This document shows positions 1 to 16,922 of a DNA stretch of 64,000 nucleotides, piece by piece. The stretch comes from Synechococcus sp. Its GTDB lineage: Bacteria; Cyanobacteriota; Cyanobacteriia; PCC-6307; Cyanobiaceae. The stretch spans positions 544,001 through 608,000 of the forward strand of contig JBJBCN010000002.1 of assembly GCA_047285805.1 (NCBI GenBank), written 5' to 3'. The translations under genes were made by a program, and so were the position numbers. Every line of letters starts with the position of its first letter. Position 1 is the first letter of the stretch. The notes beneath the pieces were generated by a model. It saw nothing but the letters and a program-made list of their open reading frames with translations. It did no database searches and was not told the origin of the DNA.

Positions 1-715
1 CCGCCAAACCAGGCAATTGGCGGGGGGCGGATCGAAGGTTTACGAGTACCTGCGGTGCAGGCAGCGGGATAAAGACAGCAGCCTTTGCGAGGCACCAGCG
101 CAGCATCCCTACGACGAAGAACGCATGCTTCGGCGTCTACATGATTTTCGGTGGGCGGAATTCTTCAGCGATGAGAAGCACGAAGCCGAAGTGACGGCAG
201 CGCGGAAGCAAGTGCTATGTGCCCAAGGGCATCGGAGTGATGTTGAACGTGACTTGACCAACCTCAGAACCGCGGCACTTGAGCAGGCGAAAGCAGGCGG
301 AACTGTCAGTGCCTGGCTGGAACACGAAGCAAAGAAGTTGGAGCAGGCGTTTTCAGATGCTCAGGCGGCTGAGAACGTCGCAATCAGCGCTTTAGGGAGC
401 CTTGAACGGCGCAGAACGGGTACAGACGCCCAACGGGCTATCCGGAAGCGTGTTGAGGCTTTCGTGGCCTCAGACAGGCAAGACGTTCAGCAGCGCAAAG
501 CGTTTATCCAGTGGCTCTCGTCAGAAGAGCTGGTGATCGAGTTCAACCTCGAGACAGGAACGATGGAGCTTGGGGTCGGTCAGGTTGCTTCTGACGGCCG
601 CTTGGTTGCACTGGATATGCGGCTTGAAGATGCGGCGGCCTTTGGGCTCCCCGTCGAGGAGTTCCGGGCATTCATCAAGGAGAGGGATGAAGCGATTGCA
701 GCCCAGCTCCAATAG
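1..715 (+). CDS. Large serine recombinase, C-terminal part (5' end outside window)
   Basis: Zn-ribbon-like YEYLRC...C segment followed by a long coiled coil, as in LSR C-termini. The frame is open from the window edge; the catalytic domain is not visible. Confidence 0.65.
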   Translation, partial: RQTRQLAGGGSKVYEYLRCRQRDKDSSLCEAPAQHPYDEERMLRRLHDFRWAEFFSDEKHEAEVTAARKQVLCAQGHRSDVERDLTNLRTAALEQAKAGGTVSAWLEHEAKKLEQAFSDAQAAENVAISALGSLERRRTGTDAQRAIRKRVEAFVASDRQDVQQRKAFIQWLSSEELVIEFNLETGTMELGVGQVASDGRLVALDMRLEDAAAFGLPVEEFRAFIKERDEAIAAQLQ

Positions 716-1047
716 GCCCTCTTGCAAGAAACTGTTGCGCGCTTAAACGGCCGTGGACACACTGAAGCTCGTGCGTCCCACGAATCTGGTCGGTCCTTAC
801 CGCCAGGCTCGTCCTAGTGGATGCGCCCCCCTTGCGCTGACGGCAACACCAAGGCCATAACCGCTGAGGACACGGTCCGAGAGAACCCCGTGATCCGAGA
901 CGGGGGAGTGCCAAGCTCCCCCAACTCAACACTCCCCGCTACTGAGCAGTGGGTCGGGGAGCTGTTGTGCTTGTTATCAGTGACCTTGATCCTTGGCGGC
1001 GAGGGGGAGGAGAGATGAGCGCAACCCAGGAGTTAGCAGGCCATATG

Positions 1048-1797
1048 TCAGAGCTTGGATTCTTCTGGAACCTCCCTTGAGGACGGAACTCGTGGAGCCA
1101 CATGCAACGACTTTTTCTTTCTTCCGTCAGATGAGGGCTGCCAATCTGAATAAACAACCTTCCAAGCTTTGACGGTTTCTGGACCAATCTCATTGATCCT
1201 TAGACCGGTGGATCCATCATTTGAAAGCAAGACAAAAGCTTTTCCATTCACCATGTCGTAGTTAGCCAAAGCGGCCGCAATTTCTTTGTTGACCCTAAAA
1301 ACGCCATCGCACCCATTAACAACCAGATAGCCGTCACCATTCTTGATTCCAAAAGACTGAATTGACTCACTACCAGTGGTCACGCGTCGACCGAAAGACT
1401 TATTGGCAACAGTTTCTTGCCTGACCCGGATTGTGTTCCGACCAAAGAACGAAGCAACCCTGAAGGATTTATTGTAATTGCGGTCAAATACACCAATCGT
1501 CGTCCCGGTGATTGGGTTTTTCAGGATTACTGGTTTGGAAAGAGGGAATTTGGTGCTCTCAAGGTCTTGCGACCTCCAGTCTTCGGTAATAGTGAAAACT
1601 TCGACGCCGGGAAAGACCCTGGGTAGCTTCTCTGGTTCATATTGAATGTATTCTTCGGTTCTATATGGCGAACATAGAAGGAGCTCCTCCTTTAATGCAT
1701 CGCCGTATTTCTTTGGCGATATTTCATATGCCGCTGCAGGCAATGAAGAGGCGAGAAGTGTTGCGCCAGCAAGGGTTAGCGGAGCGAGGGAGCGCAT
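1048..1797 (-). CDS. Hypothetical exported protein (element cargo)
   Basis: 249-aa ORF with a signal-peptide-like N-terminus ending LPAAA; lower GC than the backbone. Confidence 0.7.
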   Translation of the reverse strand: MRSLAPLTLAGATLLASSLPAAAYEISPKKYGDALKEELLLCSPYRTEEYIQYEPEKLPRVFPGVEVFTITEDWRSQDLESTKFPLSKPVILKNPITGTTIGVFDRNYNKSFRVASFFGRNTIRVRQETVANKSFGRRVTTGSESIQSFGIKNGDGYLVVNGCDGVFRVNKEIAAALANYDMVNGKAFVLLSNDGSTGLRINEIGPETVKAWKVVYSDWQPSSDGRKKKSLHVAPRVPSSREVPEESKL

Positions 1798-1859
1798 AGG
1801 CTTCTTTTTTCTATATTTAAGCTAGCATCACTTCTGTAGTCACTTGTGGGTGAAGGCCG

Positions 1860-2138
1860 ATGATCGCCTCTGGGCTTGTGGTGTCAGCGCTATTTGGGAT
1901 TGCACTGCTGAGCGCTGAATCGCCGGCGAACGCGGCTCCTTCAGTCTTGGTGAAGAGCGGCGTCAACTGCCCTGGAAGCTACGTAAAAGCAGGGAGAGGC
2001 AAGAATTGCCAAGCAGCGCCCGAATATGTAGACATCACCTATCTCGGAGAGAATATAAGGGAATCCTGTAAGCCCACCTACACCCGTCTTAATGCTGGCG
2101 ACAGCAAGTGGTGCGTAAAATACAGCGAGCAATACTAA
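1860..2138 (+). CDS. Small exported Cys-containing hypothetical protein
   Basis: 92 aa; hydrophobic N-terminus ending PANA; four Cys in the mature part. Confidence 0.6.
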   Translation: MIASGLVVSALFGIALLSAESPANAAPSVLVKSGVNCPGSYVKAGRGKNCQAAPEYVDITYLGENIRESCKPTYTRLNAGDSKWCVKYSEQY

Positions 2139-2196
2139 TGCGCTCGGATAACTTCACTTGCAAGAGTGATGGGTTGACGTGTATTTGCATCCGCAA

Positions 2197-2547
2197 CTAC
2201 CTCCTTCTCGCCTTCTGCATTGCTTGTTCAATCAGAATCCATTCCGCTGCGGTGTGACGTGTCTTCCACCCGTACTGCTCGCATAGCGCGTTGCAATAGT
2301 CCCCAATCCGCAGGATCGTCTCCAGGTCAACGCGGCTAAGCCTCTCCTTAGCCACCACGTTCCGGTCGCTCCAGTTCACCACCTGAGCAACGCGCTCCCG
2401 TAGCCCATTCATCTCCAGCTGCCGATGACCTCTCTCATTCAGTGAAATGAAGTCATCCAGGTAGCCGTCATCCATCAAGTTCTGAAGGCTTGAACGACTC
2501 CGATATCCCAGCTCTCTTGCTGCCGCCGCAATGCTCTTAATGGCCAC
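2197..2547 (-). CDS. N-terminal HTH DNA-binding protein (possible small-terminase-like or Xis-like)
   Basis: SIAAAARELGYRSRSSLQNL helix-turn-helix pattern; lies just downstream of a cos-like motif. Confidence 0.6.
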   Translation of the reverse strand: MAIKSIAAAARELGYRSRSSLQNLMDDGYLDDFISLNERGHRQLEMNGLRERVAQVVNWSDRNVVAKERLSRVDLETILRIGDYCNALCEQYGWKTRHTAAEWILIEQAMQKARRR

Positions 2548-2610
2548 TATTCGCTAAATCTCAGCGCCTAAACCAGCCTAAGGAATTTTGCACTGACGCT
2601 AGATGAGACA

Positions 2611-2653
2611 TGCGCTTTCGGATGACCCGCAATAAAGCAAATAGCAAGGACCC
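2611..2653 (-). other. Putative cos-like packaging site
   Basis: Minus strand reads GGGTCCT (the lambda cosQ heptamer), an AT-rich spacer, then the dyad TGCG-N13-CGCA. Confidence 0.4.
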
Positions 2654-2708
2654 TGCAAATACGTCATTGGATACTGATTTATTGGCTTATGGGTGTGACT
2701 GAAGAAAT

Positions 2709-2736
2709 AAAAAGCCCCTGCGTTTGCAGGGGCTTT
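2709..2736 (-). terminator. Rho-independent terminator
   Basis: AAAGCCCCTGC-gttt-GCAGGGGCTTT hairpin with a minus-strand T tract, downstream of ORF 2771-3727. Confidence 0.8.
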
Positions 2737-2770
2737 AGGTGGCTAGCCTACCACCTTCTAATGCATAATG

Positions 2771-3727
2771 TCAGCACCGCAATATCCACGGTATGTATGG
2801 ATCCAGGTAATGGCAATTATCGTGCACCCGCACATCCCTGTTACTAGGCGTTGATGTTAGGGCTTTAGCAGCGGCATTGGTTTTCGGTGTTTCTTTGCCA
2901 GGACCGCCATTGGTATTGAAGCGCCACTTGATATCAGCGGAGAAGCGTGACTTGAAGGCACTGTCATAAGAGAGGTTGGTGCCAACGGTTAGTCCGTTGT
3001 TGATGGCATAAGCCAGACGACCCAAGACGCCAGAGCCATCGGCATCGCCTGCATCGCCGTTTTGGTAGTAGTAACCGACAGAGGCTCTTAAGGCTGGCGT
3101 CAGGTTGTAACCAGCATCTAAGCCATAGGTGTCCAGTGCACCGCCTTGATAGACGGTGTTGAGCTGTTGCTCGGTGTCACCCGTTGGAATGAGCGCATAG
3201 GCATTGAAGTTCCACTTATCGCTCATCGCTTCTGCATTGACGGCAGCCTGCTGGAAGAAAGCCGTGCGTGAGGCATAGACAGGGATGCCTGTATCGGCAT
3301 CACCCGTGCTCATTGGTCGGGTGTCATAGCCCGCATTCAGTCCATACATCCAACTGCGGTCACCATTGAGCCAGCGATAGCCCAGGCGGGCTGAGGTGGA
3401 GATGGTGGTGCCAGCAACGGTGGTGTTGATGATGCTGCTGCTGTTACCCCAGTCCGACAAGTTGGCATTCGCCAAGACATCAGCAAAGAAGATGCTGTTG
3501 CTGCCGACCACCAGTGGAAGGAAGCCACCCAGACCGGCTTGGTTGGGGGTGCCAGCGGCTTGGGTTTGCGCATGGATGCCGACTTGAGGTTTGACGATGT
3601 CCTTGAGCTGAATGCTCATCACGCCTAGGTCACTGGCGCTGCCATGCCCATCAGCTTGTGCAGGGAGAGTGGCGACTGCGAATGCAGATGCCACCAACCC
3701 GATTGATAAAGGACGCAGCATCAGCAC
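2771..3727 (-). CDS. Outer-membrane beta-barrel protein, inverse-autotransporter beta-domain-like
   Basis: Signal peptide (ATLPAQA); alternating beta-strand motifs RLGYRW, YGLNAGYD, LGRLAY, ADIKWRF. Confidence 0.7.
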   Translation of the reverse strand: MLMLRPLSIGLVASAFAVATLPAQADGHGSASDLGVMSIQLKDIVKPQVGIHAQTQAAGTPNQAGLGGFLPLVVGSNSIFFADVLANANLSDWGNSSSIINTTVAGTTISTSARLGYRWLNGDRSWMYGLNAGYDTRPMSTGDADTGIPVYASRTAFFQQAAVNAEAMSDKWNFNAYALIPTGDTEQQLNTVYQGGALDTYGLDAGYNLTPALRASVGYYYQNGDAGDADGSGVLGRLAYAINNGLTVGTNLSYDSAFKSRFSADIKWRFNTNGGPGKETPKTNAAAKALTSTPSNRDVRVHDNCHYLDPYIPWILRC

Positions 3728-3775
3728 TGGTGGGCAGTTGGGGTGATGGTGACCTACTTACGGTGACTTGTCGTG

Positions 3776-3807
3776 AGAAAGCCCGAGGGGGCATCACTCC
3801 CTCGGGC
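3776..3807 (-). terminator. Terminator after capsid gene
   Basis: GCCCGAGGG...CCCTCGGGC hairpin (3781-3807) followed by TTTCT on the minus strand, about 30 nt past the stop at 3838. Confidence 0.65.
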
Positions 3808-3837
3808 GGAACTGCACCACTGCAGGAGCTCTCGCGG

Positions 3838-5436
3838 TTATGCGATCGCGTCCTGCATCGCAGCGAAGCTTTCAGGGTGTCTGACGGCGATATCGATCGA
3901 CTGCAGCGCTCGGATGCCAGTCGTGCCCTTGGCGAAGTCGGTGTAGGAGTCCACCAGGATTCCCAAGGTGCCGTACAGGCCAATCAGCAGGTCGCTGAAG
4001 TTGCCGTAGACGATCGCGCTCAGGTTGGTGCCAGTGCCCTTGCTCAAGTTGCTCGGGACGTTGTTGCTGACCTCGAAGCGACGTCCAGCAATCTGCGAGC
4101 GGCCTAGCTAAGTGCCATAAGGCGAAAGCAGGTACTGGTCTTGGGAGTCCTTGAGCTTGGAGAGGACTGCTTCCACCTTGGCGTTGGTGAGGAAGCCGCA
4201 GCTAGCGACATCAGCGTTATCGACGGCCACCTCCTTCTTGAGGTCCATCAGGTGATCGAGGGTCGGAGCCAAGCCATTGGTCCCGCCCGCAACAGAGCCA
4301 ATGCCTGTGGTGTTCAAGATCCCTGTGGGTTGGTTGCTACTGCCACTGCCGTTGATGGCAGCGGTGTCGATTGCATCGGCCAGCAGCGCAACGAAGTCAG
4401 CACGGATCAGCTGCTCGATGTCCGGGGTGCTTTGCAGGTTCATCAGGTGAGAGAACTTGCTAAGTGCACCAACGGTCTTGGGGGTCATCGTCACGGTGCC
4501 GATGGTCCCGGTGCTTTCGGTGACGCTGTCGCTGTCATCAGCACCAAACCAATAGGCAGTCGCAGTGCCTGTTCTCTTGGGGATGCTCACGTCGCCCACC
4601 AAGCCGCCAAGGAAGGTGGCGCCAAGCTCGGCAACGGCCAAGCGATCACGCAGCGCCTCAATGAAACTGGTCGCCAGGTGATCGGTAGCGATCAGGTTGC
4701 CGCCGGCGCTTGCGGTTCCCGCCACATAGGTGCGTTTCTTCCAGCCGTTATCCGGGACAAAGAAGCCTTGAGTACGCCGCCCATTGCGGTGCTCAAGCTC
4801 TTGGTTCACCTCAGCTTCTCGGCCGCTCAGCCCCCGACCTGAGGAGATGCCTTGCGCAGCGCGGACGATGCTGAACTGCTCGGCCTCTCGCCGGTACTCG
4901 GCATCAGGGTCAAGGCCAATGGGGGAAATCGGTTCGTAGGTCATTGGTGTGTGAGTCGTAGTTGGTAGGGCGCGGTTCACGCCAATCGATGCGTCGGCCG
5001 GGATGCTCACGACGCTCAGCTCAATCGGTTGCCAGCGAGTGACGCGCATCACGCCTGCGTCCTGCTCGGCATCCAGCACGGAGTAGCCGACCGAGATGTT
5101 GGGCCTCACGCCTGCTTCAACGTCCTTGCGCACTTGCCTGGCGAGGTCGTTTGTGGCCCAGGTGATGCGGGCCATGCAGCGGCGTCTCTCATCGATCCAT
5201 GCCCGCTCGACAATCCCGAGGATTCGATCCGGGTCGTGGTTCAGCAGCAGTGGTGCTGCGCCTCCATTCAGCCGAGTGAGGTCGACCGCTTCTCGGTCGT
5301 GATCCAACACCTCATCACCGAAGTATCGAGTGACAGGTGTTTCCGAGCTGAATGAGAACTCAAGCTGATTGGAGTCAGCTTTGGTGTCATCGATCGTGAG
5401 ATAACGCCGCTGGATTTCGGCGGCGATGGTTGTCAT
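3838..5436 (-). pseudogene. Prohead protease-HK97 major capsid protein fusion interrupted by an in-frame TAG at 4108-4110 (pseudogene, read-through or sequencing error)
   Basis: Protease motifs LLLNHD and ELSVVSIPAD; capsid motifs AGGNLI, INGSGSSNQPTGILN, and after the stop GNFSDLLIG and DIAVRHPESF in the same frame. Confidence 0.85.
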
Positions 5437-5649
5437 TGACTCCCTCTATAGAGAGGTCTCGTAGATAACGACGTTGCTGAGCGCTAGCGAGGCAATCTTC
5501 CAAGGGATTTGGAACCCTTGGCATGTCGTCATCGACGAGTGATTTCATGTCCAATGCTAGAGATATATCTACTCCGATAATAGTCGCTTCTCTAAATACG
5601 CCTAATCAGTGTTAGTCAATGCTTCTGGGCGCCTGCAGAGGGGTTGCTG

Positions 5650-5761
5650 AGAGGAAAAAGAGGTTTAAGAGGTTAAAGAGGTTGCACCATCACACGCATG
5701 TATGGCTTTCTTGAAGTCAGACCCCTGTAGCGAGACAGCCTCTAAAACCTCTTTTCCCCTT
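5650..5761. repeat. Iteron-like direct and inverted repeats, putative replication origin
   Basis: AAGAGGTT at 5658, 5667 and 5676 (9-bp period); inverted copies at 5746 (exact), 5737 and 5755 (degenerate); abuts the helicase stop codon. Confidence 0.6.
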
Positions 5762-5766
5762 AGTGG

Positions 5767-7137
5767 TCACCTGGTCAGTGCTTTAAGCACCTCATCGACT
5801 GGGCGAAAGAGGGCTGCGGGAGGCCCGCCTCGTTTCCCGTTTGATTGTTGGTAGCCGTCTTCAACGATCAGGTGTTTGCGCTCAAGGGCTTGCAATGCCT
5901 CTCGCGCCTTTGATGTGGCATGCACTTCAAGACCTAAGGCATTGCCTAGGTGAACCGCATCCATACCTTTCTTTGTCGATTGGTAGTGATCGCATAGGTC
6001 TGTCAGGGCCTTGTGCTGACGATCTGTGAGGTCGTCGAGTACTCCCTGAATCGCGGCTTTTCTTGCCACCTCCTCGCCGGATCCATGAAGGATCCAGCCA
6101 GCGTTTGTTTGCTCGATCAGCAAGTCGATCGGTGCAGCTTCACGACCCTCTGCCGCCAACCTGCTCCGCCTGTCTCGTTGAGCGAGCGGGTTGTCATCGC
6201 CGTCCCCAAGAGACGCGAGAGCCGCCGTTTGGGAAGCGGCTGCCGGCAGAGAGTTATTGCCTCGACTGGCCTCTGAGGCCCGCAATGCACCAGGCCGTTT
6301 TTTTGCGTGGTGGATCAAGAGCAGCGTCGCCTCGTGGGGAGCGAGCGCTTCTGTCAGATCGATGCAGGGGTCAGCAAAGGCGGCATCGCATTCCTGCAGC
6401 CCAAGCTTGCTGGTGCACGCGTGATAGCTGTCGACCAGAACAATCAGCCTTGGGTAGCGAAGGCAGTAGCCGACGATTTCCTCAATGCCTTCCTCGTCCA
6501 CATGGAGTGGTGCGCCCTTGTGGAAGAGGCCAACAATCGCCGGGTGCATGCTCCTGTCTGGGTTGAGCAGACCAGCGAGCTGAAGGCACTTTGCCCAATC
6601 CCGTTGCGGTTGGTCCGTTCCAACAATCAGAACCTTGGCGTCAGGCCATGGATGCAGGGCCTGTCCGAGAAACTCTGACTCCCCTCGGACTAATGCCCCG
6701 AGGACGGCACAAGCCAGTCGGCTTTTTCCCGTCTTTGGGGCACCGACAACAAGATTGCTCGTCCCTCGCAGCAGGATGTTCGACCAAAGCCAGGGTGCTT
6801 CTGCAAGCGAAAGCTTTCCGCCTTGCGGGATGGGTTCAGCAGCACCCACCAGCCTTCGCCGCTCTTGCCCAAGGAGGCGGCGAAGCTCGTCGTCTCGGAC
6901 GCGCGTCTGAAGTTCAGATGCGGTTCGGCGTAGGTGGATGAGTCGCTGATGGCTGGGAATGGCCTCATCGCAAAGAAGATCCCGCGTCTTCCTCTGCAGG
7001 GTGCGTAGGTCCTCTGCTGCCGATGGCTTGCGTCGAGGGGCGGGGTCAACGCGTTTGAGCTGACCCTGAACGCGTTGTTGCCGTTCCCTTTGATCAAACG
7101 CGTCTGAGTGGTCGAGCCATGCGAGTGGGTCGGTCAT
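5767..7137 (-). CDS. AAA_25/RepA-like replicative helicase/ATPase
   Basis: Walker A GAPKTGKS, Walker B IVLVDS, LLLIHHAKK, SRGNNSL, wHTH-like C-terminus. ATG at 7137 overlaps the upstream stop (ATGA). Confidence 0.8.
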   Translation of the reverse strand: MTDPLAWLDHSDAFDQRERQQRVQGQLKRVDPAPRRKPSAAEDLRTLQRKTRDLLCDEAIPSHQRLIHLRRTASELQTRVRDDELRRLLGQERRRLVGAAEPIPQGGKLSLAEAPWLWSNILLRGTSNLVVGAPKTGKSRLACAVLGALVRGESEFLGQALHPWPDAKVLIVGTDQPQRDWAKCLQLAGLLNPDRSMHPAIVGLFHKGAPLHVDEEGIEEIVGYCLRYPRLIVLVDSYHACTSKLGLQECDAAFADPCIDLTEALAPHEATLLLIHHAKKRPGALRASEASRGNNSLPAAASQTAALASLGDGDDNPLAQRDRRSRLAAEGREAAPIDLLIEQTNAGWILHGSGEEVARKAAIQGVLDDLTDRQHKALTDLCDHYQSTKKGMDAVHLGNALGLEVHATSKAREALQALERKHLIVEDGYQQSNGKRGGPPAALFRPVDEVLKALTR

Positions 7138-7355
7138 CGGGACCTCCTCGCCCATTCGGCCATTCGGAGGCAGCCAATCGGGTCTTGGTGCTCCAAAAGG
7201 GCTGCTGCTCGGTCGTAATCCGCTGCTGACCAAGCTGGTTCGCTGCTGAGACGCAGCAGCGTGCCGGTCAGATCAACTGAGTCCAGAGGTCGCGAAAAAT
7301 CTCCGTAATGCCGCCAGCGATAACGAGTAACGGTAATTAGGGTGTCATCAGACAT
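7134..7355 (-). CDS. Small hypothetical protein coupled to the helicase
   Basis: GGGAG RBS before ATG 7355; stop overlaps the helicase start. Confidence 0.55.
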   Translation of the reverse strand: MSDDTLITVTRYRWRHYGDFSRPLDSVDLTGTLLRLSSEPAWSAADYDRAAALLEHQDPIGCLRMAEWARRSR

Positions 7356-7370
7356 TTGTTCGTGACTCCC

Positions 7371-7391
7371 AGCCCCAACTGGGGGTTTTTT
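7371..7391 (+). terminator. Terminator-like hairpin antisense to the replication operon
   Basis: GCCCC-aact-GGGGG hairpin followed by TTTTTT on the + strand. Confidence 0.5.
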
Positions 7392-7419
7392 CATTTTTCG
7401 AGAACCTCGATTCGTTGGG

Positions 7420-7662
7420 TCAGGGCTGAAATCCGGTCTTGAGGTGGGCGCTCACCTCTTGGGCCAAGTCACGGGCGGCTTCGCTGGAAGTGCGATTGAC
7501 GACGACCGCCTCCTGCAGCTGACCAACAGCGGCAAGCATTGCGGTGGTGCTATCGATCAAGCGGCGTTCGAGTTCTGTTGATGCCAAAGGCATCAGCTCC
7601 TCGCGCCAGGCATCGCATTGCGTCTGGACGCGTTCCGCCGTCCAAAAAATGTCCGCTTTCAC
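7420..7662 (-). CDS. Small helical hypothetical protein
   Basis: 80 aa; GTG start overlaps the upstream stop (GTGA). Confidence 0.55.
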   Translation of the reverse strand: MKADIFWTAERVQTQCDAWREELMPLASTELERRLIDSTTAMLAAVGQLQEAVVVNRTSSEAARDLAQEVSAHLKTGFQP

Positions 7663-7850
7663 TTGGCTGCTCCTTTTTTGAGCTCTTCCTCCTGGTGCGC
7701 GAGGGCAAAGATCACCATTGCTCTGAGTAGCTCCGCTCGACGGACCCTGTAAGCGGCCGCCAAGGCATCTACGCGAGCTGCGGTCGGTTGGTCGATGTCA
7801 CACGAGAGCCTCACGTCCCGTGATGGCCTCACTGGCAGTTGAACGGTCAT
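7659..7850 (-). CDS. Ribbon-helix-helix (CopG-like) regulator
   Basis: VRLSCDID beta strand then helices TAARVDALAAAY and RRAELLRAMV; first gene of the replication operon. Confidence 0.6.
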   Translation of the reverse strand: MTVQLPVRPSRDVRLSCDIDQPTAARVDALAAAYRVRRAELLRAMVIFALAHQEEELKKGAAK

Positions 7851-7955
7851 GGTTCCAAGTTCTGGACCGAAGTACGAACCAGTGTGTGGAACGTTCAGTA
7901 GCCCTGCAGTGCAGTCGATCTCAGCCGAGTGAATGCTTTTCGCAAGTAACCAACC

Positions 7956-8063
7956 AAGAGGCTGCTGTTGGTGGAGGTCAAAGTCCGGAACCGGAGTGGG
8001 TCTGTGCCTTGGCACCCCTTGCCTCCCAGTCGCCGGCCCGTGCTTTGGCTGTCTTGGGCCTGA
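7956..8063 (+). pseudogene. yraN: Decayed 3' remnant of YraN-family (UPF0102) gene
   Basis: Translates KRLLLVEVKVRNRSG...PLPPSRRPVLWLSWA*, containing the YraN VEVK-x-R motif. No 5' half (in-frame TAA at 7947); directly upstream of rsmA. Confidence 0.65.
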
Positions 8064-11409: not shown

Positions 11410-12891
11410 ATGGCACGTCAACAGGGGTGGTTCGCCCTGATCTTGGCCCTGGCGTTTGCCGCAGGTGCCGCTCTGACTTCCTTTCCACTGCAACTGGGTT
11501 TGGATCTGCGTGGTGGTAGCCAATTGACTCTGCAAGTGATGCCGGCAGGCCCCATTGAGCGCGTCGAAAGCGAGCAGCTGGAGGCGGTGAAAGAAGTCTT
11601 AGATCGCCGCATCAATGGTCTTGGGGTGAGTGAAACCACGTTGCAGACCATTGGGGAAGATCGCCTCTTGCTCCAGATGCCCGGTGAACAGGACCCGAGC
11701 CGTGCGGCGAAGGTTCTCGGCACGACAGCTCTGCTGGAGTTTCGGGGCCAGAAACCTGGCACCGAGCAAGAAATGAGCGGTTTGCTCAAGCTCAAGCGGC
11801 AGGCCCAAGCCGTCTTAAATCTGCGTCGCTCCAAGGATCAAGAGCAGGCCAAAGCGGCTGATCTGGATGTAGAGGGTCTGACCCAGCTCCTGAAGGATGC
11901 AGGAGTCAGCGCCCCGGCCGGCAGCAGCGAGACCGACCAGTTGGAGCTGCTCCTTGCAGCAGTCAACACAAAGATTGTTGACCTCTATGAACCTGCCGCC
12001 CTGACCGGTAAGGATCTCACCGGTGCTGGTCGGCAACAGAACCAGTCGGGTAGTGCCTGGGACGTCACCTTGAGCTTTAACACCGAGGGTGGCCGCAAGT
12101 TCGCCCAACTCACTCAAGGCATTGCTGGCAGTGGCCGTCTGTTGGGAATCGTTTTGGACGGCCGCTCGATCAGTGAAGCAAGTGTCGGCCCTGAGTTCAA
12201 GCCCGCTGGCATCAGCGGGGGCGCCGCGACCATCACGGGCAACTTCAGCGCTGAGGCGGCGCGTGATCTGGAGGTTCAGCTCCGGGGCGGCTCCCTGCCT
12301 TTGCCCGTGGAAGTGATCGAGCAGCGCACCATTGGAGCCACCCTCGGCAGCGAGAATGTCCAACGCAGCCTGAAGGCGGCCCTGCTAGGTCTCGCCCTGG
12401 TCGCCTTCTTCATGGTGGGCTTCTATCGCCTTCCTGGTGCTGTTGCCGTGTTGGCCCTGGGGCTCTACGCACTGTTCAACCTGGCTATGTACGCGCTGAT
12501 CCCGGTCACTCTGACTCTGCCTGGGATTGCTGGTTTCATCCTCTCGATCGGCATCGCTGTGGATGCCAACGTCCTGATCTTTGAGCGGATCAAAGAAGAA
12601 TTACGCCTCGGCAACACCCTCATCCGCTCCATCGATGCAGGCTTCTCCTTGGCCTTCTCTTCGATCCTTGATGGCCATATCACTGGTTTGATTAGCTGCG
12701 TGGCCCTCTTTGCACTCGGCAGCGGTCTTGTCAAAGGCTTTGCCGTCACCTTGGGCATCGGTTTGGTGCTGAGCCTATTCACGGCATTGACGTGCACCCG
12801 CACCCTCTTGCGCCTGCTGATGGGTTATCCCTCCCTGCGCCGCTCCAGCTACTTCCTGCAACAGTCTCAGCTGCCCGCCCAGGCCTCCTGA
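11410..12891 (+). CDS. secD: Protein translocase subunit SecD
   Basis: LGLDLRGG, RRINGLGV, AVDANVLIFERIKEE. Confidence 0.97.
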   Translation: MARQQGWFALILALAFAAGAALTSFPLQLGLDLRGGSQLTLQVMPAGPIERVESEQLEAVKEVLDRRINGLGVSETTLQTIGEDRLLLQMPGEQDPSRAAKVLGTTALLEFRGQKPGTEQEMSGLLKLKRQAQAVLNLRRSKDQEQAKAADLDVEGLTQLLKDAGVSAPAGSSETDQLELLLAAVNTKIVDLYEPAALTGKDLTGAGRQQNQSGSAWDVTLSFNTEGGRKFAQLTQGIAGSGRLLGIVLDGRSISEASVGPEFKPAGISGGAATITGNFSAEAARDLEVQLRGGSLPLPVEVIEQRTIGATLGSENVQRSLKAALLGLALVAFFMVGFYRLPGAVAVLALGLYALFNLAMYALIPVTLTLPGIAGFILSIGIAVDANVLIFERIKEELRLGNTLIRSIDAGFSLAFSSILDGHITGLISCVALFALGSGLVKGFAVTLGIGLVLSLFTALTCTRTLLRLLMGYPSLRRSSYFLQQSQLPAQAS

Positions 12892-13868
12892 TGTCAGACC
12901 CTTCGACCGCCGTGGCTGCAACCGCTCCTCGCTTTCGGATCAGCCGCATCCGCCGTCAGGGCTGGCTTGCCTCCGGCCTCGCTGTGTTGCTCAGTGTTAT
13001 GGGCATGGTGCTCTGCTGGACCAACCCTCGCATTGCCGCACCGCTGAAGCCCGGTTTGGACTTCACCGGCGGTACCCAGATAGAGATCCAGCGCAGCTGC
13101 ATGGGCCCAGACTGCTCAGGTCTAAAAGCTGCCGCAGTCCGTCAGAAACTGCGTGCATTGACTTTGCCCGAGATCGGCGGCCAAGCGGCGCCCCAGCTTG
13201 TCAATGCCGGCGTTCAGGTTCTGGATGGGGGCCGTTCCGTCGACCTGCGTCTTCCGGATCTTGAGCCGGAGCAGAGCCAAGCAATGATTGCGGGTCTGGT
13301 TCGCGTCATAGGGCCAATCCACCTTGACCAGGTCTCAATCAACACCATTGGACCCACTCTTGGATCTGAGCTTCTCAAGGGGAGCTTGATTTCCTTATTG
13401 GTGAGCTTTGCCGCTATCTCGGTTTACATCAGATTCCGTTACGACGATGTCTTTGCCGGCTTGGCCCTGTTGTGTCTGGCCCATGACATCGTCATCACCT
13501 GCGGCGTTTTCGCTTGGTTGGGTTTGATCAGCGGCATCGAGGTCAATTCACTCTTTGCTGTGGCTCTGATCACAGTGGCCGGTTACTCCATCAACGACAC
13601 CGTGGTGGTCTTTGACCGCATCCGTGAGCAAAAACGCGCCTTGCAGGGGCTGAGCCTCCAGGACCAGGTGGACGTGGCCGTGGATGCCACCTTGACCCGC
13701 TCGCTGTACACGTCTTTTACTACCCTCCTACCGCTGGTGTCCCTTCTGCTCTTCGGTGGGAGCAGCCTCTTCTGGTTTGCTGTGGCACTGACCATCGGTA
13801 TCGGTGTCGGCAGTTGGTCGAGCATTGGGATTGCCCCGACCTTGTACTCGGTTCTCTCGCGTCGATGA
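12891..13868 (+). CDS. secF: Protein translocase subunit SecF
   Basis: GLDFTGG, GYSINDTVVVFDRIRE; ATG overlaps the secD stop. Confidence 0.96.
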   Translation: MSDPSTAVAATAPRFRISRIRRQGWLASGLAVLLSVMGMVLCWTNPRIAAPLKPGLDFTGGTQIEIQRSCMGPDCSGLKAAAVRQKLRALTLPEIGGQAAPQLVNAGVQVLDGGRSVDLRLPDLEPEQSQAMIAGLVRVIGPIHLDQVSINTIGPTLGSELLKGSLISLLVSFAAISVYIRFRYDDVFAGLALLCLAHDIVITCGVFAWLGLISGIEVNSLFAVALITVAGYSINDTVVVFDRIREQKRALQGLSLQDQVDVAVDATLTRSLYTSFTTLLPLVSLLLFGGSSLFWFAVALTIGIGVGSWSSIGIAPTLYSVLSRR

Positions 13869-14062
13869 CCCGCCGCATCCCCTTGGTGCCGCTGCTGCTC
13901 GCAGCAATAGCCCTTTGGGATCTGCGCTCTGAGCTTCAGCTTCTGGCCGAGCATTTCACTTGGATCAGCCTGCTCACGATTCCCCGCTACCACCTGCTGG
14001 CGGTGAGTGTGCTGCTGTTGACGCCAACCCTCATTCGTCAAATCAGAGCCCAGCGGCGATAA
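13865..14062 (+). CDS. Small membrane hypothetical protein
   Basis: 65 aa, hydrophobic; ATGA overlap with the secF stop. Confidence 0.6.
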   Translation: MTRRIPLVPLLLAAIALWDLRSELQLLAEHFTWISLLTIPRYHLLAVSVLLLTPTLIRQIRAQRR

Positions 14063-14741
14063 CAAATCCCATAGTGCTGAGCATCGCTTATTCGCTGAAG
14101 CTCAAAATCCCTAGGGGCGTTTTGCTGTTCCCGCCGACACAAGCACAGTTCAGAGCCAGTTTGTCTACACAAACGGCATTTAGGACCGAGATAATTCCGG
14201 GAATGCCAACTATGAGTGCGACCCAGCCTGCTAGGGGGACTGCCGGGTTCGTCAAGAAACCCAGGTCAACCAGTAATCCCACGCTTGGGTAAACCTTCGC
14301 CCAATTTCGCCAACGCTGGATGATGAGGTCGTACTTGCTTAAGCTCTCGGCAAAGCTGCTGATGTCCATCAGCTTCAGGATGACCAGCACGCAAATAGAC
14401 AACCACTTGAAGTGTCGAAGGATCGAGCCTTCGAGTACCAACGCGATCAGCAATGTGCTGCCAAAGACAGCGAGCACTGGGGTGTAGGAATACTCGACGG
14501 ACTCAGCCTCCTCTCCGGGTCGCTTGGCTAAGTTGCCATAGCCATCGATGCGTTCATCACGGGAAAAAACTTGCGGAGTTGTTGTCACCCGGTGAGCCTG
14601 TTTAAACGCGTCAACCGCCACTGATGTTGTGAGGAGATGATCGTCGAAAAGAATTCCCTTCGCTTGCAGCAAGTCACGCGCTTCAGTCCAAACGGGCAGT
14701 CGTGCACTAGCGTCGACAAGCGGTATAACAAACGCCCTCAA
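14043..14741 (-). pseudogene. Glutaredoxin-MauE/DoxX-type membrane protein, frameshifted and prematurely stopped
   Basis: LYRLSTLVHDCPFGLK lies in a different frame (shift near 14680) from TTPQVF...SYTPV...LNCACVGGNSKTPLG. TAA at 14088 is followed by in-frame hydrophobic AMLSTMGFVIAAGL*. Confidence 0.7.
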
Positions 14742-14865
14742 GATTGTGACGGCGATGCACCGGTGCCTTGCCTCACTACACGGAAGCTAGAAATCGTCTG
14801 CAAGTTCGACAACCCCACTGCTTGCTATCACAGGCTCCTGGGCTGGGATGAAATCGCAAGGACGA

Positions 14866-15867
14866 TCAAGTCCACTTGTCCATGACCTGCTCCACCAGCA
14901 CCCGTTGGGAGAAGACTTGAAGCACCACCACCAGCGGCAGGGCGAGCAGTACACCGGGAAGTCCCAGCAGAGCCCCGAGGCTCAACTGGGACATTAGGGC
15001 CACGGTGGGCAGGAGGTTGACCGTTCTGCTCAGCAAGAGAGGGGTGAGCAGAAAGGCTTCGCCGTTCTGCAGCACCAAACGCAGCACGATCACCTGAACC
15101 GCAAGGGTCGGTGAGATCAACAACGAGACCCCCACGGGCAACAGGCTGGCCAGGGTTGGGCCGATGGTGGGAACAAAGGTGAGCAGGCCGCAGATCAGGC
15201 CGCTCAACAGCGCCAATGGCACCTTCAGGGCCGCCAGCCCCGCCCAGGTCAGAAGGAAGACCACGGAGGCGGAGAGGGTCATCCCCGCCAGCCAGCCGCC
15301 CAGGGCCTGGCGGCTTTCCGTGAGCAGGTTGTGCACCAAGGCGCGGCTGTGGGCGGGCATCAGCGCCAAGGCCAAGCGCTGGTGACTGCGGGGATCGAGC
15401 ACCAACAGGATCGCTAGCAGTCCCATCAGCAGTAGGATCACGGTGCCACTTGCGGCGCCGCCGGCGACCCCCAGCAGTTGGGCGCCAATGGGCTGCAGCT
15501 TGTCGATGGTGAGCAGCTCTGACAGTTGGCTTCCGAGTCCCTTCAGCACGCTTACTCCGCCGATCAGTTCGGCAAGCCGCGCAATCAAGGCCGGCACCAG
15601 TTGGGTCAGTTGGTTGAGCTGTTCCAGCAGTTCAGGCAAGAGAAGTTCGGCGAGCTGCCAGCTCAACAGGCTGAGCAACACCAGTACCGCCAGTAGGGCC
15701 TGCGGACGGCTCAGCCGAACAACCCTCCGCAGCCAGCTCACTGGCACATCTAAGGCGACGGCGAGCACCACGGCGCCAAATAGCATCATCAGCACCCATC
15801 GCAGTTCCCAGGCCAAAAGCCCAAGGACCACCAGGGAGAGCAGCAGCAGCAAGCCCCTAGGTGTCAT
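14866..15867 (-). CDS. AI-2E family transporter
   Basis: Polytopic membrane protein; FVPTIGP, LGLPGVLLALP. Confidence 0.9.
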   Translation of the reverse strand: MTPRGLLLLLSLVVLGLLAWELRWVLMMLFGAVVLAVALDVPVSWLRRVVRLSRPQALLAVLVLLSLLSWQLAELLLPELLEQLNQLTQLVPALIARLAELIGGVSVLKGLGSQLSELLTIDKLQPIGAQLLGVAGGAASGTVILLLMGLLAILLVLDPRSHQRLALALMPAHSRALVHNLLTESRQALGGWLAGMTLSASVVFLLTWAGLAALKVPLALLSGLICGLLTFVPTIGPTLASLLPVGVSLLISPTLAVQVIVLRLVLQNGEAFLLTPLLLSRTVNLLPTVALMSQLSLGALLGLPGVLLALPLVVVLQVFSQRVLVEQVMDKWT

Positions 15868-16922
15868 GGCCGATCATCCATGGCTGGCTCCCAACCGTTA
15901 AGGACGTCCTGGATCAGCACCTCACGGATGATCACCTGCAGGCAGACCGCGAGCGGCAGGGCTAAGAGCAGGCCCAACGGACCAAAGATGACCGTAAACA
16001 GAAACTGCGCGATCAAGGTCAGCCCCGGCAACAACTTGACCTGGTGGTGCATGACCGACGGAGTGATCAGGTAACTTTCGATGTGCTGGATGACGACATA
16101 GAGCAGCAAGACAAACAACGCCTTCACTGGTGAATCCAGCAGCGCCACCGACATCGGGAAGACTGTGCTGAGGGTGGGGCCGATGTTGGGAATGACGTTC
16201 AACAGCGCCGCTAAGAGGGCATTGGCCGCCACCAACTTCACGCCAAGCAGCGAGAGGCCAATGGCCGCCAAAACACCAACGCAGAACGAACTGATCAGCA
16301 ATCCAGCCATCCAGCTGCTCAAGGCCTCACCGCAGAAGGTGAGAACCTCGCGGAATCGACGTCGATAAAAAGAAGGCACCAGGAGGATTGCGATTTCCCG
16401 GTAGGCCTTTGGCTGTATTGCCATCATTAAAGTGACGGCGACAACAAACAACAACTCCACCAGGCCACTGCTGAGATTGCCCGCTACGCCGAGCAGCTTC
16501 AGCAGGCCATCCGTGGGATCCAGGCTGGCGCTGCCTTGGTTTTGCCAGCTCTGATGCAACCACTCCAGGGCCTTACGCCCGTAGAGCATTTGGCTGCTCT
16601 GATCGAGGCTTTCGCGTAGCAGCTGCATGGCCACCTGCAGGGCGGCGGGTAGTTGCTTGAGCAGCTCCTGAAATTCGGCGATGAAGGGAGGAATGACCAC
16701 CGCCGTGGTCAGAATCGCCATCAGCAGCAAACCTCCAAGACTGAGCGAGAGCGCAACGGGGCGGTTGCAGCGCATTCGCTCTTGCGTGACACCCACCAAC
16801 GTGCAGATCGCCATGGCGAGCACCACGGCTGCAAAAACAAGGATTAGGACCTCGCGTAGGGACCACAGCAGCAGCACCGCAGCTGCTGTGGCGATCAATC
16901 CGAGCCACTGGCCGAATCTCAA
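15864..16922 (-). CDS. AI-2E family transporter
   Basis: IPNIGP, IESYLITP, FGPLGLLLALP. Confidence 0.9.
   Translation of the reverse strand: MRFGQWLGLIATAAAVLLLWSLREVLILVFAAVVLAMAICTLVGVTQERMRCNRPVALSLSLGGLLLMAILTTAVVIPPFIAEFQELLKQLPAALQVAMQLLRESLDQSSQMLYGRKALEWLHQSWQNQGSASLDPTDGLLKLLGVAGNLSSGLVELLFVVAVTLMMAIQPKAYREIAILLVPSFYRRRFREVLTFCGEALSSWMAGLLISSFCVGVLAAIGLSLLGVKLVAANALLAALLNVIPNIGPTLSTVFPMSVALLDSPVKALFVLLLYVVIQHIESYLITPSVMHHQVKLLPGLTLIAQFLFTVIFGPLGLLLALPLAVCLQVIIREVLIQDVLNGWEPAMDDRP

Follow-up and report, generated by a model that had tools for sequence, protein, structure and literature searches.

The described systems closest to the element treated here are the PICI-like tycheposons (PICI, phage-inducible chromosomal island), 474 of 501 of which carry tRNA-linked tyrosine recombinases (bioRxiv 10.1101/2020.12.28.424599). 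In its accessible part, to which our statements are limited as for all sources cited here, that preprint anticipated the hijacking of phage capsids and names no helper, cos site or packaging signal. The E. coli PICI EcCICFT073 is described as combining a capsid gene with cos and a helix-turn-helix (HTH) protein resembling the small terminase subunit (TerS) (PMC6092414, PMC9026076). Here we analyse a stretch of 64,000 nucleotides from Synechococcus sp. (assembly GCA_047285805.1, contig JBJBCN010000002.1, positions 544,001 to 608,000; hereafter the window, G000:C2:544001-608000 in our numbering, where L numbers denote loci), the first 8 kb of which had been predicted from the letters alone to be a capsid-encoding phage satellite. 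With a probability of roughly 80%, we conclude that this DNA is a PICI-like satellite tycheposon in decay, of the type with a serine recombinase and a capsid gene. The satellite reading holds because site-specific integration, a helicase with origin-like repeats, a capsid and a lambda-type cos occur together with no other virion genes.

The element shares with PICI-like tycheposons an integrase, a replication helicase and a capsid without other virion genes. It differs from them in lying in yraN and not in a tRNA gene, in having three cargo genes where the preprint saw none in PICI-like tycheposons, and in pairing a capsid with a cos-linked TerS-like HTH gene where the preprint reports either the major capsid protein or terS; moreover, its host is a GC-rich picocyanobacterium and the copy in the window is broken (bioRxiv 10.1101/2020.12.28.424599). 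Compared with EcCICFT073-type PICIs, it has a cosQ and a cosN like those of the helper (in the window judged by sequence only), a capsid gene, a probable lambda-type helper and a winged-HTH gene that is shorter than TerS and starts ~80-100 bp from the cut, whereas a ribbon-helix-helix (RHH) protein stands in place of AlpA, the recombinase is of the serine type, the helicase has no detected primase, the HTH protein has no detected sequence similarity to Rpp and the protease is fused to the capsid (PMC6092414, PMC9026076). Capsid-forming PICIs (cf-PICIs) likewise have their own capsid and maturation protease, but they also encode portal, head-tail connectors, HNH, TerS and the large terminase subunit (TerL), none of which the window element has (bioRxiv 10.1101/2022.09.08.507074). 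The module 3 marine satellites among the virion-encapsidated integrative mobile elements (VEIMEs) resemble it in serine recombinase, association with Cyanobacteria and size range; VEIMEs are without a major capsid gene, however, which the window element has (PMC9618062). The element belongs with the capsid-type PICI-like tycheposons and would work like a cos-type PICI, departing in target, cargo and the cos-HTH pair.

The anatomy of both ends shows that a large serine recombinase inserted the 9,037-bp element, which begins ~1.07 kb left of the window, into yraN. A 12-nt attachment (att) core is present with one mismatch at the two ends (C2:542923-542934 and window 7960-7971), and the arms on the element side form an inverted match of 20 in 26 positions, the top 26-mer match in the first 8 kb, the next one reaching 18. 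Inverted arms at attP are expected of large serine recombinases. The right att site (7932-7971) comprises the element arm, 7932-7957, and the core, 7960-7971. On the left, a pentapeptide-repeat gene is followed by the 5' halves of yraN and of the recombinase gene; on the right, the 3' remnant of the split yraN (7960-8063, plus strand) is followed by ksgA. The identity of yraN was taken from an intact orthologue (PF02021), and the gene was matched in 41 of 44 other genomes of the genus. In the 29 best genus loci fetched it is uninterrupted and the site is empty in every case, with ksgA adjoining in 27 and the remaining two being short contigs. The integration target is therefore protein-coding, as had been predicted, and no tRNA was found in the window or upstream of it. 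The window copy is a case of a satellite disrupting a conserved core gene. The element has a GC content of 56.5% against 62.0% in the flanks. The core genes, the named nearest capsids and the seawater runs in which part of the stretch occurs suggest a marine Synechococcus-type picocyanobacterium as host. About 115 bp are missing from the yraN remnant and were lost after the insertion, so that excision would not restore the gene. Family members also occupy the yraN-ksgA locus of other Synechococcus in four metagenome contigs (L326, L331, L338 and L367); the two that cover the far end or the near end are without the recombinase.

The predicted fusion of a Peptidase_S78 prohead protease with an HK97-fold Phage_capsid domain is encoded at 3838-5436 (minus strand, 532 codons) and is of a short-linker type. 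The structure model of an intact relative with 94% identity adopts the HK97 fold, its nearest match being the marine siphophage R4C (8gta, E 6.5e-19). Linker length separates the satellite capsid clade from phage capsids: none of 39 fetched fusions with short linkers (-1 to +15 residues) has a portal or TerL gene in its locus (0 of the 24 having at least 2.5 kb upstream), compared with 90 of 122 long fusions (49-154 extra residues), in a count that used the genes of one phage as queries, contains some near-duplicate rows and covers full genes only. A quick tree was built from the last 300 residues (75 rows after removal of duplicates and partial genes, midpoint root). In it, 27 short-linker rows form one side of a branch with an SH-aLRT value of 99, and the nearest rows beyond that branch are the phage contigs L142, L408 and L416. 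In the protease half, H67 and S115 are invariant across 46 relatives, a pattern suggestive of a shell that the fusion itself matures. Viral contigs scanned with single sequences, the capsid and the HTH protein, gave no match. Overlapping the capsid start lies a conserved leader open reading frame (ORF) of 53 aa (5387-5548, minus strand) with the invariant motif D..SAQ.RRYL, which the original prediction had overlooked. An ORF of 43-61 aa with this motif lies upstream of the capsid gene in 13 non-duplicate related loci of both genera, Synechococcus and Prochlorococcus, and a profile search with it returned 38 clusters, all of 43-84 aa. We suppose that the leader ORF replaces the lost scaffold segment in a scaffold-like role. 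The chances are about even that the heads are small, given an element of 9 kb against phage genomes of 25-38 kb.

The cos-like motif that had been predicted before the HTH gene is a lambda-type cos (2593-2653, minus strand), as judged from its sequence, with a predicted cut that coincides with the ends of phage contigs. It consists of GGGTCCT at 2653-2647, a predicted left end starting at 2627 and a CTAGCG box at 2602. GGGTCCT stands 19 nt before the predicted cut in the window and 23 nt before the right end of lambda, where we take it to be cosQ. A first search expression for cos matched no related locus; a stricter one matched 16 of 39 related loci against 25 of 4,344 background windows. When viral contigs were searched with a three-block pattern built from the window, all 80 matches listed spanned 55-59 nt, with 39-71 nt allowed. 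Among these 80 fetched matches, 18 lie beside TerS/TerL, 52 beside a ParB/methylase-type gene and three beside neither, and seven are cut short. The window-type cut-site pattern is found in 11 viral loci, with TerS and TerL following in ten and the eleventh ending at the motif. The first base of seven phage contigs (L109, L142, L375, L380, L381, L382 and L390) falls exactly on the predicted cut, and the CTAG box follows after 24-26 nt. In three of them (L375, L380 and L382), 12 of the first 13 letters are identical to the window; L389 begins 6 nt earlier and L384 later. The window site was also recovered by a profile made from phage cos rows only, as the second-best site in the genome, the best and the third lying in sister remnants.

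This match points to lambda-type cyanosiphoviruses as helpers, going by the similarity of the cut sites. L380 encodes a gpA terminase, a lambda portal and a fusion capsid, and six of eight matching contigs tested have a TerL with 42-48% identity to the S-CBS1 protein. Among annotated capsids, that of Synechococcus phage S-LBS1 matches best. The isolates S-CBS1, S-CBS3 and S-LBS1 and the contigs L375, L380, L382, L408 and L416 share with the element a fusion of the same family (37-38% identity for the three isolates) and have gpA terminase and lambda portal, and uncultured contigs among them have the matching cos. In contrast to the element, they are full phages of 25-38 kb, and their fusions have 83-107 more linker residues; we regard them as candidate helpers and not as relatives of the whole element. 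Neither a gpA terminase nor a lambda portal was found in the whole genome, and this search detected no helper prophage there. A literature search, which covered papers outside subscription journals, returned no cos sites, helpers or linker loss for tycheposons, and the accessible parts of PMC8995045, PMC12669031 and PMC11876622 contain nothing on cos sites or helpers of tycheposon-type elements. The coincidence of the cos cut with phage contig ends, the short-linker rule and the conserved leader ORF are therefore new here, as far as this search reached. A same-genus prophage (L008, G006:C21:18000-33533), which is cut off by a contig end, encodes a gpA-like terminase together with a long protease-capsid fusion and is a possible helper type. 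In L422, two cos-like motifs (L422:6117 and 6614) face each other around an HTH gene, like the two cos sites of EcCICFT073.

The winged-HTH gene (2197-2547, minus strand) starts at bp 81 from the predicted cos cut. Only part of the predicted pairing of cos with a terS-like gene stood: the cos is there, whereas the HTH protein is no complete TerS, since it is without the conserved C-terminal half of that subunit. The PICI-C protein Rpp starts at bp 102 and is likewise without the TerL-binding end (PMC9026076). The N-terminal 60 residues of the HTH protein are predicted to form a winged helix of the MerR/Xis/TerS type. In a structural search, SoxR and 6hn7, an entry on E. coli PICI hijacking, tie at Z 6.9 (57-58 residues aligned, root mean square deviations of 2.7 and 3.7), with excisionases just behind. 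The HTH profile had no significant match among PDB sequences, including no detected similarity to Rpp, and Foldseek returned nothing at E 0.001. A complex prediction of the HTH protein with the TerS of L380 scored 0.00, which is no answer and was used neither way. A profile built from capsid loci hit the HTH family 34 times in such loci, 20 times at most 450 nt from a detected cos; 12 recombinase loci that lack this capsid gave a single weak hit. A packaging role like that of Rpp is our preferred reading of this protein; by analogy it is plausible, unproven and at about even odds. Two satellites, L089 and L335, combine a short-linker capsid with a full-length TerS, and no TerL or portal was detected in them.

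We propose the following course of events for an intact member of the family. The recombinase integrates the element into a protein-coding gene, as the att anatomy shows here. Infection by a lambda-type siphovirus would lead to excision and to replication from the iterons with the element's own helicase. The helper's gpA terminase would very probably cut the cos of the element, whose sequence matches the helper's cut site and may serve as its mimic. The winged-HTH protein might, with an even chance, bind at cos and bring in the helper's TerS and TerL as Rpp does in E. coli PICIs. The shortened protease-capsid fusion and the leader ORF would then make or reshape heads on the helper's portal, and the tails would come from the helper.

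Several findings weigh against parts of this proposal. The HTH profile matches cyanophage-type TerS over 46 columns (93.4%) and the Xis-like proteins of the elements over 26 columns (93.2%), and PHROGs favours an excisionase. No cos was detected near 14 of the 34 HTH hits, and in four Prochlorococcus loci (L018, L019, L021 and L027) the HTH gene comes after an integrase-like gene and points at cos from the opposite side, unlike the cos-rpp arrangement. No primase domain was detected in the window element, no complete intact copy of exactly this element was found in virus collections, and the hosts of the matching phage contigs are assigned by inference.

The tie between the Xis-like and TerS sets and the position after integrase-like genes speak at the same time for an alternative to which we give somewhat less than even odds, namely that the HTH protein is an excisionase or a transcription regulator and packaging relies on the cos mimic alone. 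In that case the capsid could interfere with helper heads or resize them, or concatemers of three to four copies could fill full-size heads. Ccm of SaPIbov5 reportedly interferes with or resizes helper heads. Packaging of marine satellites as concatemers is described (PMC9618062), and deletion of the EcCICFT073 capsid gene left interference intact (PMC6092414, in its accessible part). Against this alternative, the HTH family tracks the capsid and cos and not the recombinase, within the limits of a profile from capsid loci; a separate Xis-like gene heads the replication operon of the elements; and the retention of H67 and S115 across the 46 relatives suggests a self-maturing shell. The question concerns the HTH and head-making steps and not the reading of the element as a satellite.

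More tentatively, and rather against the odds, we speculate that capsid-type tycheposons form a class midway between PICIs and cf-PICIs. They would build a small head of their own from the shortened self-maturing fusion and a leader scaffold of 50 residues, and would take portal, terminase and tail from lambda-type cyanosiphoviruses by means of the cos mimic and an Rpp-like adaptor. If this is true, the helper and the route of packaging would be named for satellites that live on the most abundant phototrophs in the ocean. The cos that matches the ends of marine phage contigs, the capsid linker rule and the leader ORF make helper, cut site and head size testable in strains with intact copies. 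The window copy itself is inactive, and its value lies in pointing to the family's helper virus, for which no name has been given so far.

That inactivity is due to lesions which the original prediction had passed over. The ORF at 1-715 (plus strand) is, as predicted, the C-terminal half of a large serine recombinase; retrieval of the sequence to the left of the window yielded its Resolvase and Recombinase domains together with the left att core and placed the start of the gene at G000:C2:543043, 957 bases outside the window. It carries a frameshift near C2:543198-543201, which falls between residues 54 and 56 of an intact relative (81-89% identical), and a TAG at C2:543534-543536. An in-frame TAG interrupts the capsid gene at 4108-4110; among the relatives listed, the five closest (86-98% identical, full length) have Glu there. 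The contigs of run X1 show zero differences from the assembly across the recombinase and capsid genes; sequencing error as the origin of the stops was rejected on this ground, although X1 is possibly the sample behind the assembly and excludes only an assembly error. All three metagenome runs show the sense letter at the capsid stop position. The lesions are genuine in this strain, and the wild copies covered do not have them. Because of these three lesions, the window copy is unable to integrate, excise or make capsids alone, and the induction test suggested with the original prediction would therefore probably fail in this strain. No circle joint for the element was among the joints listed, which come from run contigs only. 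The contig depth in X1 differs little between element and flanks (564-674 against 564-595 for the unique pieces) and gives no copy number.

A host could in principle keep such an immobile copy if the cos decoy, the HTH protein or the three exported cargo proteins protected it against phage or altered the cell surface, a possibility that we consider improbable. The lesions do fall in the recombinase and capsid genes, while the frames of HTH, cos, cargo and helicase are open. Three further family remnants in the same genome (near C2:296-299 kb, 1,144-1,146 kb and 1,333-1,339 kb) keep pieces of cos and/or HTH, and one cargo gene, encoding a protein of 318 aa, has ~10 other copies. On the other hand, three lesions in the two longest genes are an outcome to be expected of chance decay, the other copies of the HTH and barrel genes in the genome are themselves broken, and the yraN site is empty in the genus loci described above.

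The recombinase family is present in 23 of 400 family genomes sampled. In the twelve recombinase loci fetched, the gene is accompanied by other cargo, by a capsid of a different kind (L417, L419) or by TerS (L428), and these varying partners indicate that modules are swapped, as the tycheposon preprint describes. Alignment of the recombinase against viral contigs gave one locus, L417, with its different capsid. L417 (a viral contig of 9.2 kb that encodes a related serine recombinase), L419 and L009 are similar-sized satellites with a different, unfused HK97 capsid (24-26% identity). In genome G024, whose yraN is intact, a recombinase that is 80-85% identical over the first 140 residues (L170:1000-1777) lies at the end of a prepilin-like gene, so that close relatives use different targets.

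An alignment of the 46 capsid relatives retrieved 79 genome loci, 26 of them picocyanobacterial, and fusions of this kind are what tRNA-linked elements of picocyanobacteria usually have as their capsid. The capsid of the window lies in one clade with the capsids of Prochlorococcus elements. Prochlorococcus MIT 9302 (L025) and AG-347-B23 (L026) have the gene order of the window, consisting of an RHH-like gene, a small ORF, a primase-like ORF, helicase, capsid, cos, HTH and a convergent serine recombinase, with identities to the window of 31% for the helicase, 57% for the fusion capsid, 38% for the HTH protein and 30% for the recombinase. The MIT 9302 element (L025:6929-15683) splits gloA, which makes a protein-coding target common to it and the window element, and carries a whole second gloA as well as an ORF similar to a DNA-ligase N-terminus (by eye). 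The second gloA apparently restores the target gene, whereas the window element does not restore yraN. The synteny that the original prediction had suggested looking for is present; the presence in MIT 9302 of the whole combination of fusion, cos with HTH, RHH-like first gene, serine recombinase and protein-coding target contradicts its idea of a distinct family. The same core, combined with an integrase-like ORF of ~400 aa (by eye, no profile test), recurs in further loci near tRNA-Pro or tRNA-Met, and all these loci agree with the preprint's PICI-like tycheposons. Related capsid elements occur in viral contigs (L089). That the DNA is the remnant of a temperate phage after deletion of portal, terminase and tail genes is largely refuted and very improbable, for although lambda-type cyanosiphoviruses have homologues of the fusion, of cos and of the helicase, and decay of the copy is plain to see, the two att ends are both there, 9 kb from each other, the compact layout recurs across Synechococcus and Prochlorococcus, and the capsid clade never lies beside portal or TerL in 39 loci. 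As predicted, no portal, TerL or tail gene was found, here in the 12 kb listed upstream; with the recombinase at 1-715, this leaves the assignment to satellites of the tycheposon and PICI kind intact.

The predicted replication operon was recovered on the minus strand. It begins with an RHH protein, a probable regulator (7659-7850, PF01402 at E 0.002, below the cut-off), followed by two small ORFs conserved in relatives, one of 80 aa (7420-7662, 66-68%) and one of 86 aa (7134-7394, 61-80%), and by an AAA_25 (RepA-like) helicase with a C-terminal winged helix (5767-7137), which is 30-34% identical to the helicases of Prochlorococcus elements. No AlpA was matched by Pfam among 11 element ORFs. 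The predicted iterons form an array at 5650-5752, a probable origin, with three direct AGAGGTT units and an inverted pair; three matches compare with 0.00 expected from 100 shuffles, the pattern being taken from the site itself. Arrays of like build follow the helicase in L006, L324, L022 and L025. Counts of promoters and terminators are at chance level.

Three ORFs with hydrophobic N-termini agree with the three exported proteins of the original prediction and are putatively exported. The 249-aa protein (1048-1797, minus strand) belongs to a cyanobacterial family without Pfam entry, and a homologue with 33% identity is encoded between capsid and cos in L369. The 92-aa protein (1860-2138, plus strand) has no family. 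The 318-aa protein (2771-3727, minus strand) belongs to a cyanobacterial family mis-named carbamoyl-phosphate synthase, and its gene also follows the capsid gene in L324/L325. Neighbouring clusters of this family carry PF11924 IAT_beta (43% of members), a lead by which the protein is possibly an inverse-autotransporter barrel. Several of its further copies in the genome are broken, and six lie in one 20-kb island (L007; G000:C2:1,135-1,153 kb).

No credible RNA was found within the element by Rfam. A structured repeat of 119 nt (848-966, plus strand; z -3.05), which has no Rfam family, has 24 full or partial matches in the genome, itself included, mostly in island-like regions. Elsewhere in the same genome, two more integrase-like ORFs and a primase-polymerase-like ORF flank a sister copy of the helicase (L006:1409-5175 and 12129-16135), a region that, with genes named by eye, appears to be an island of stacked elements.

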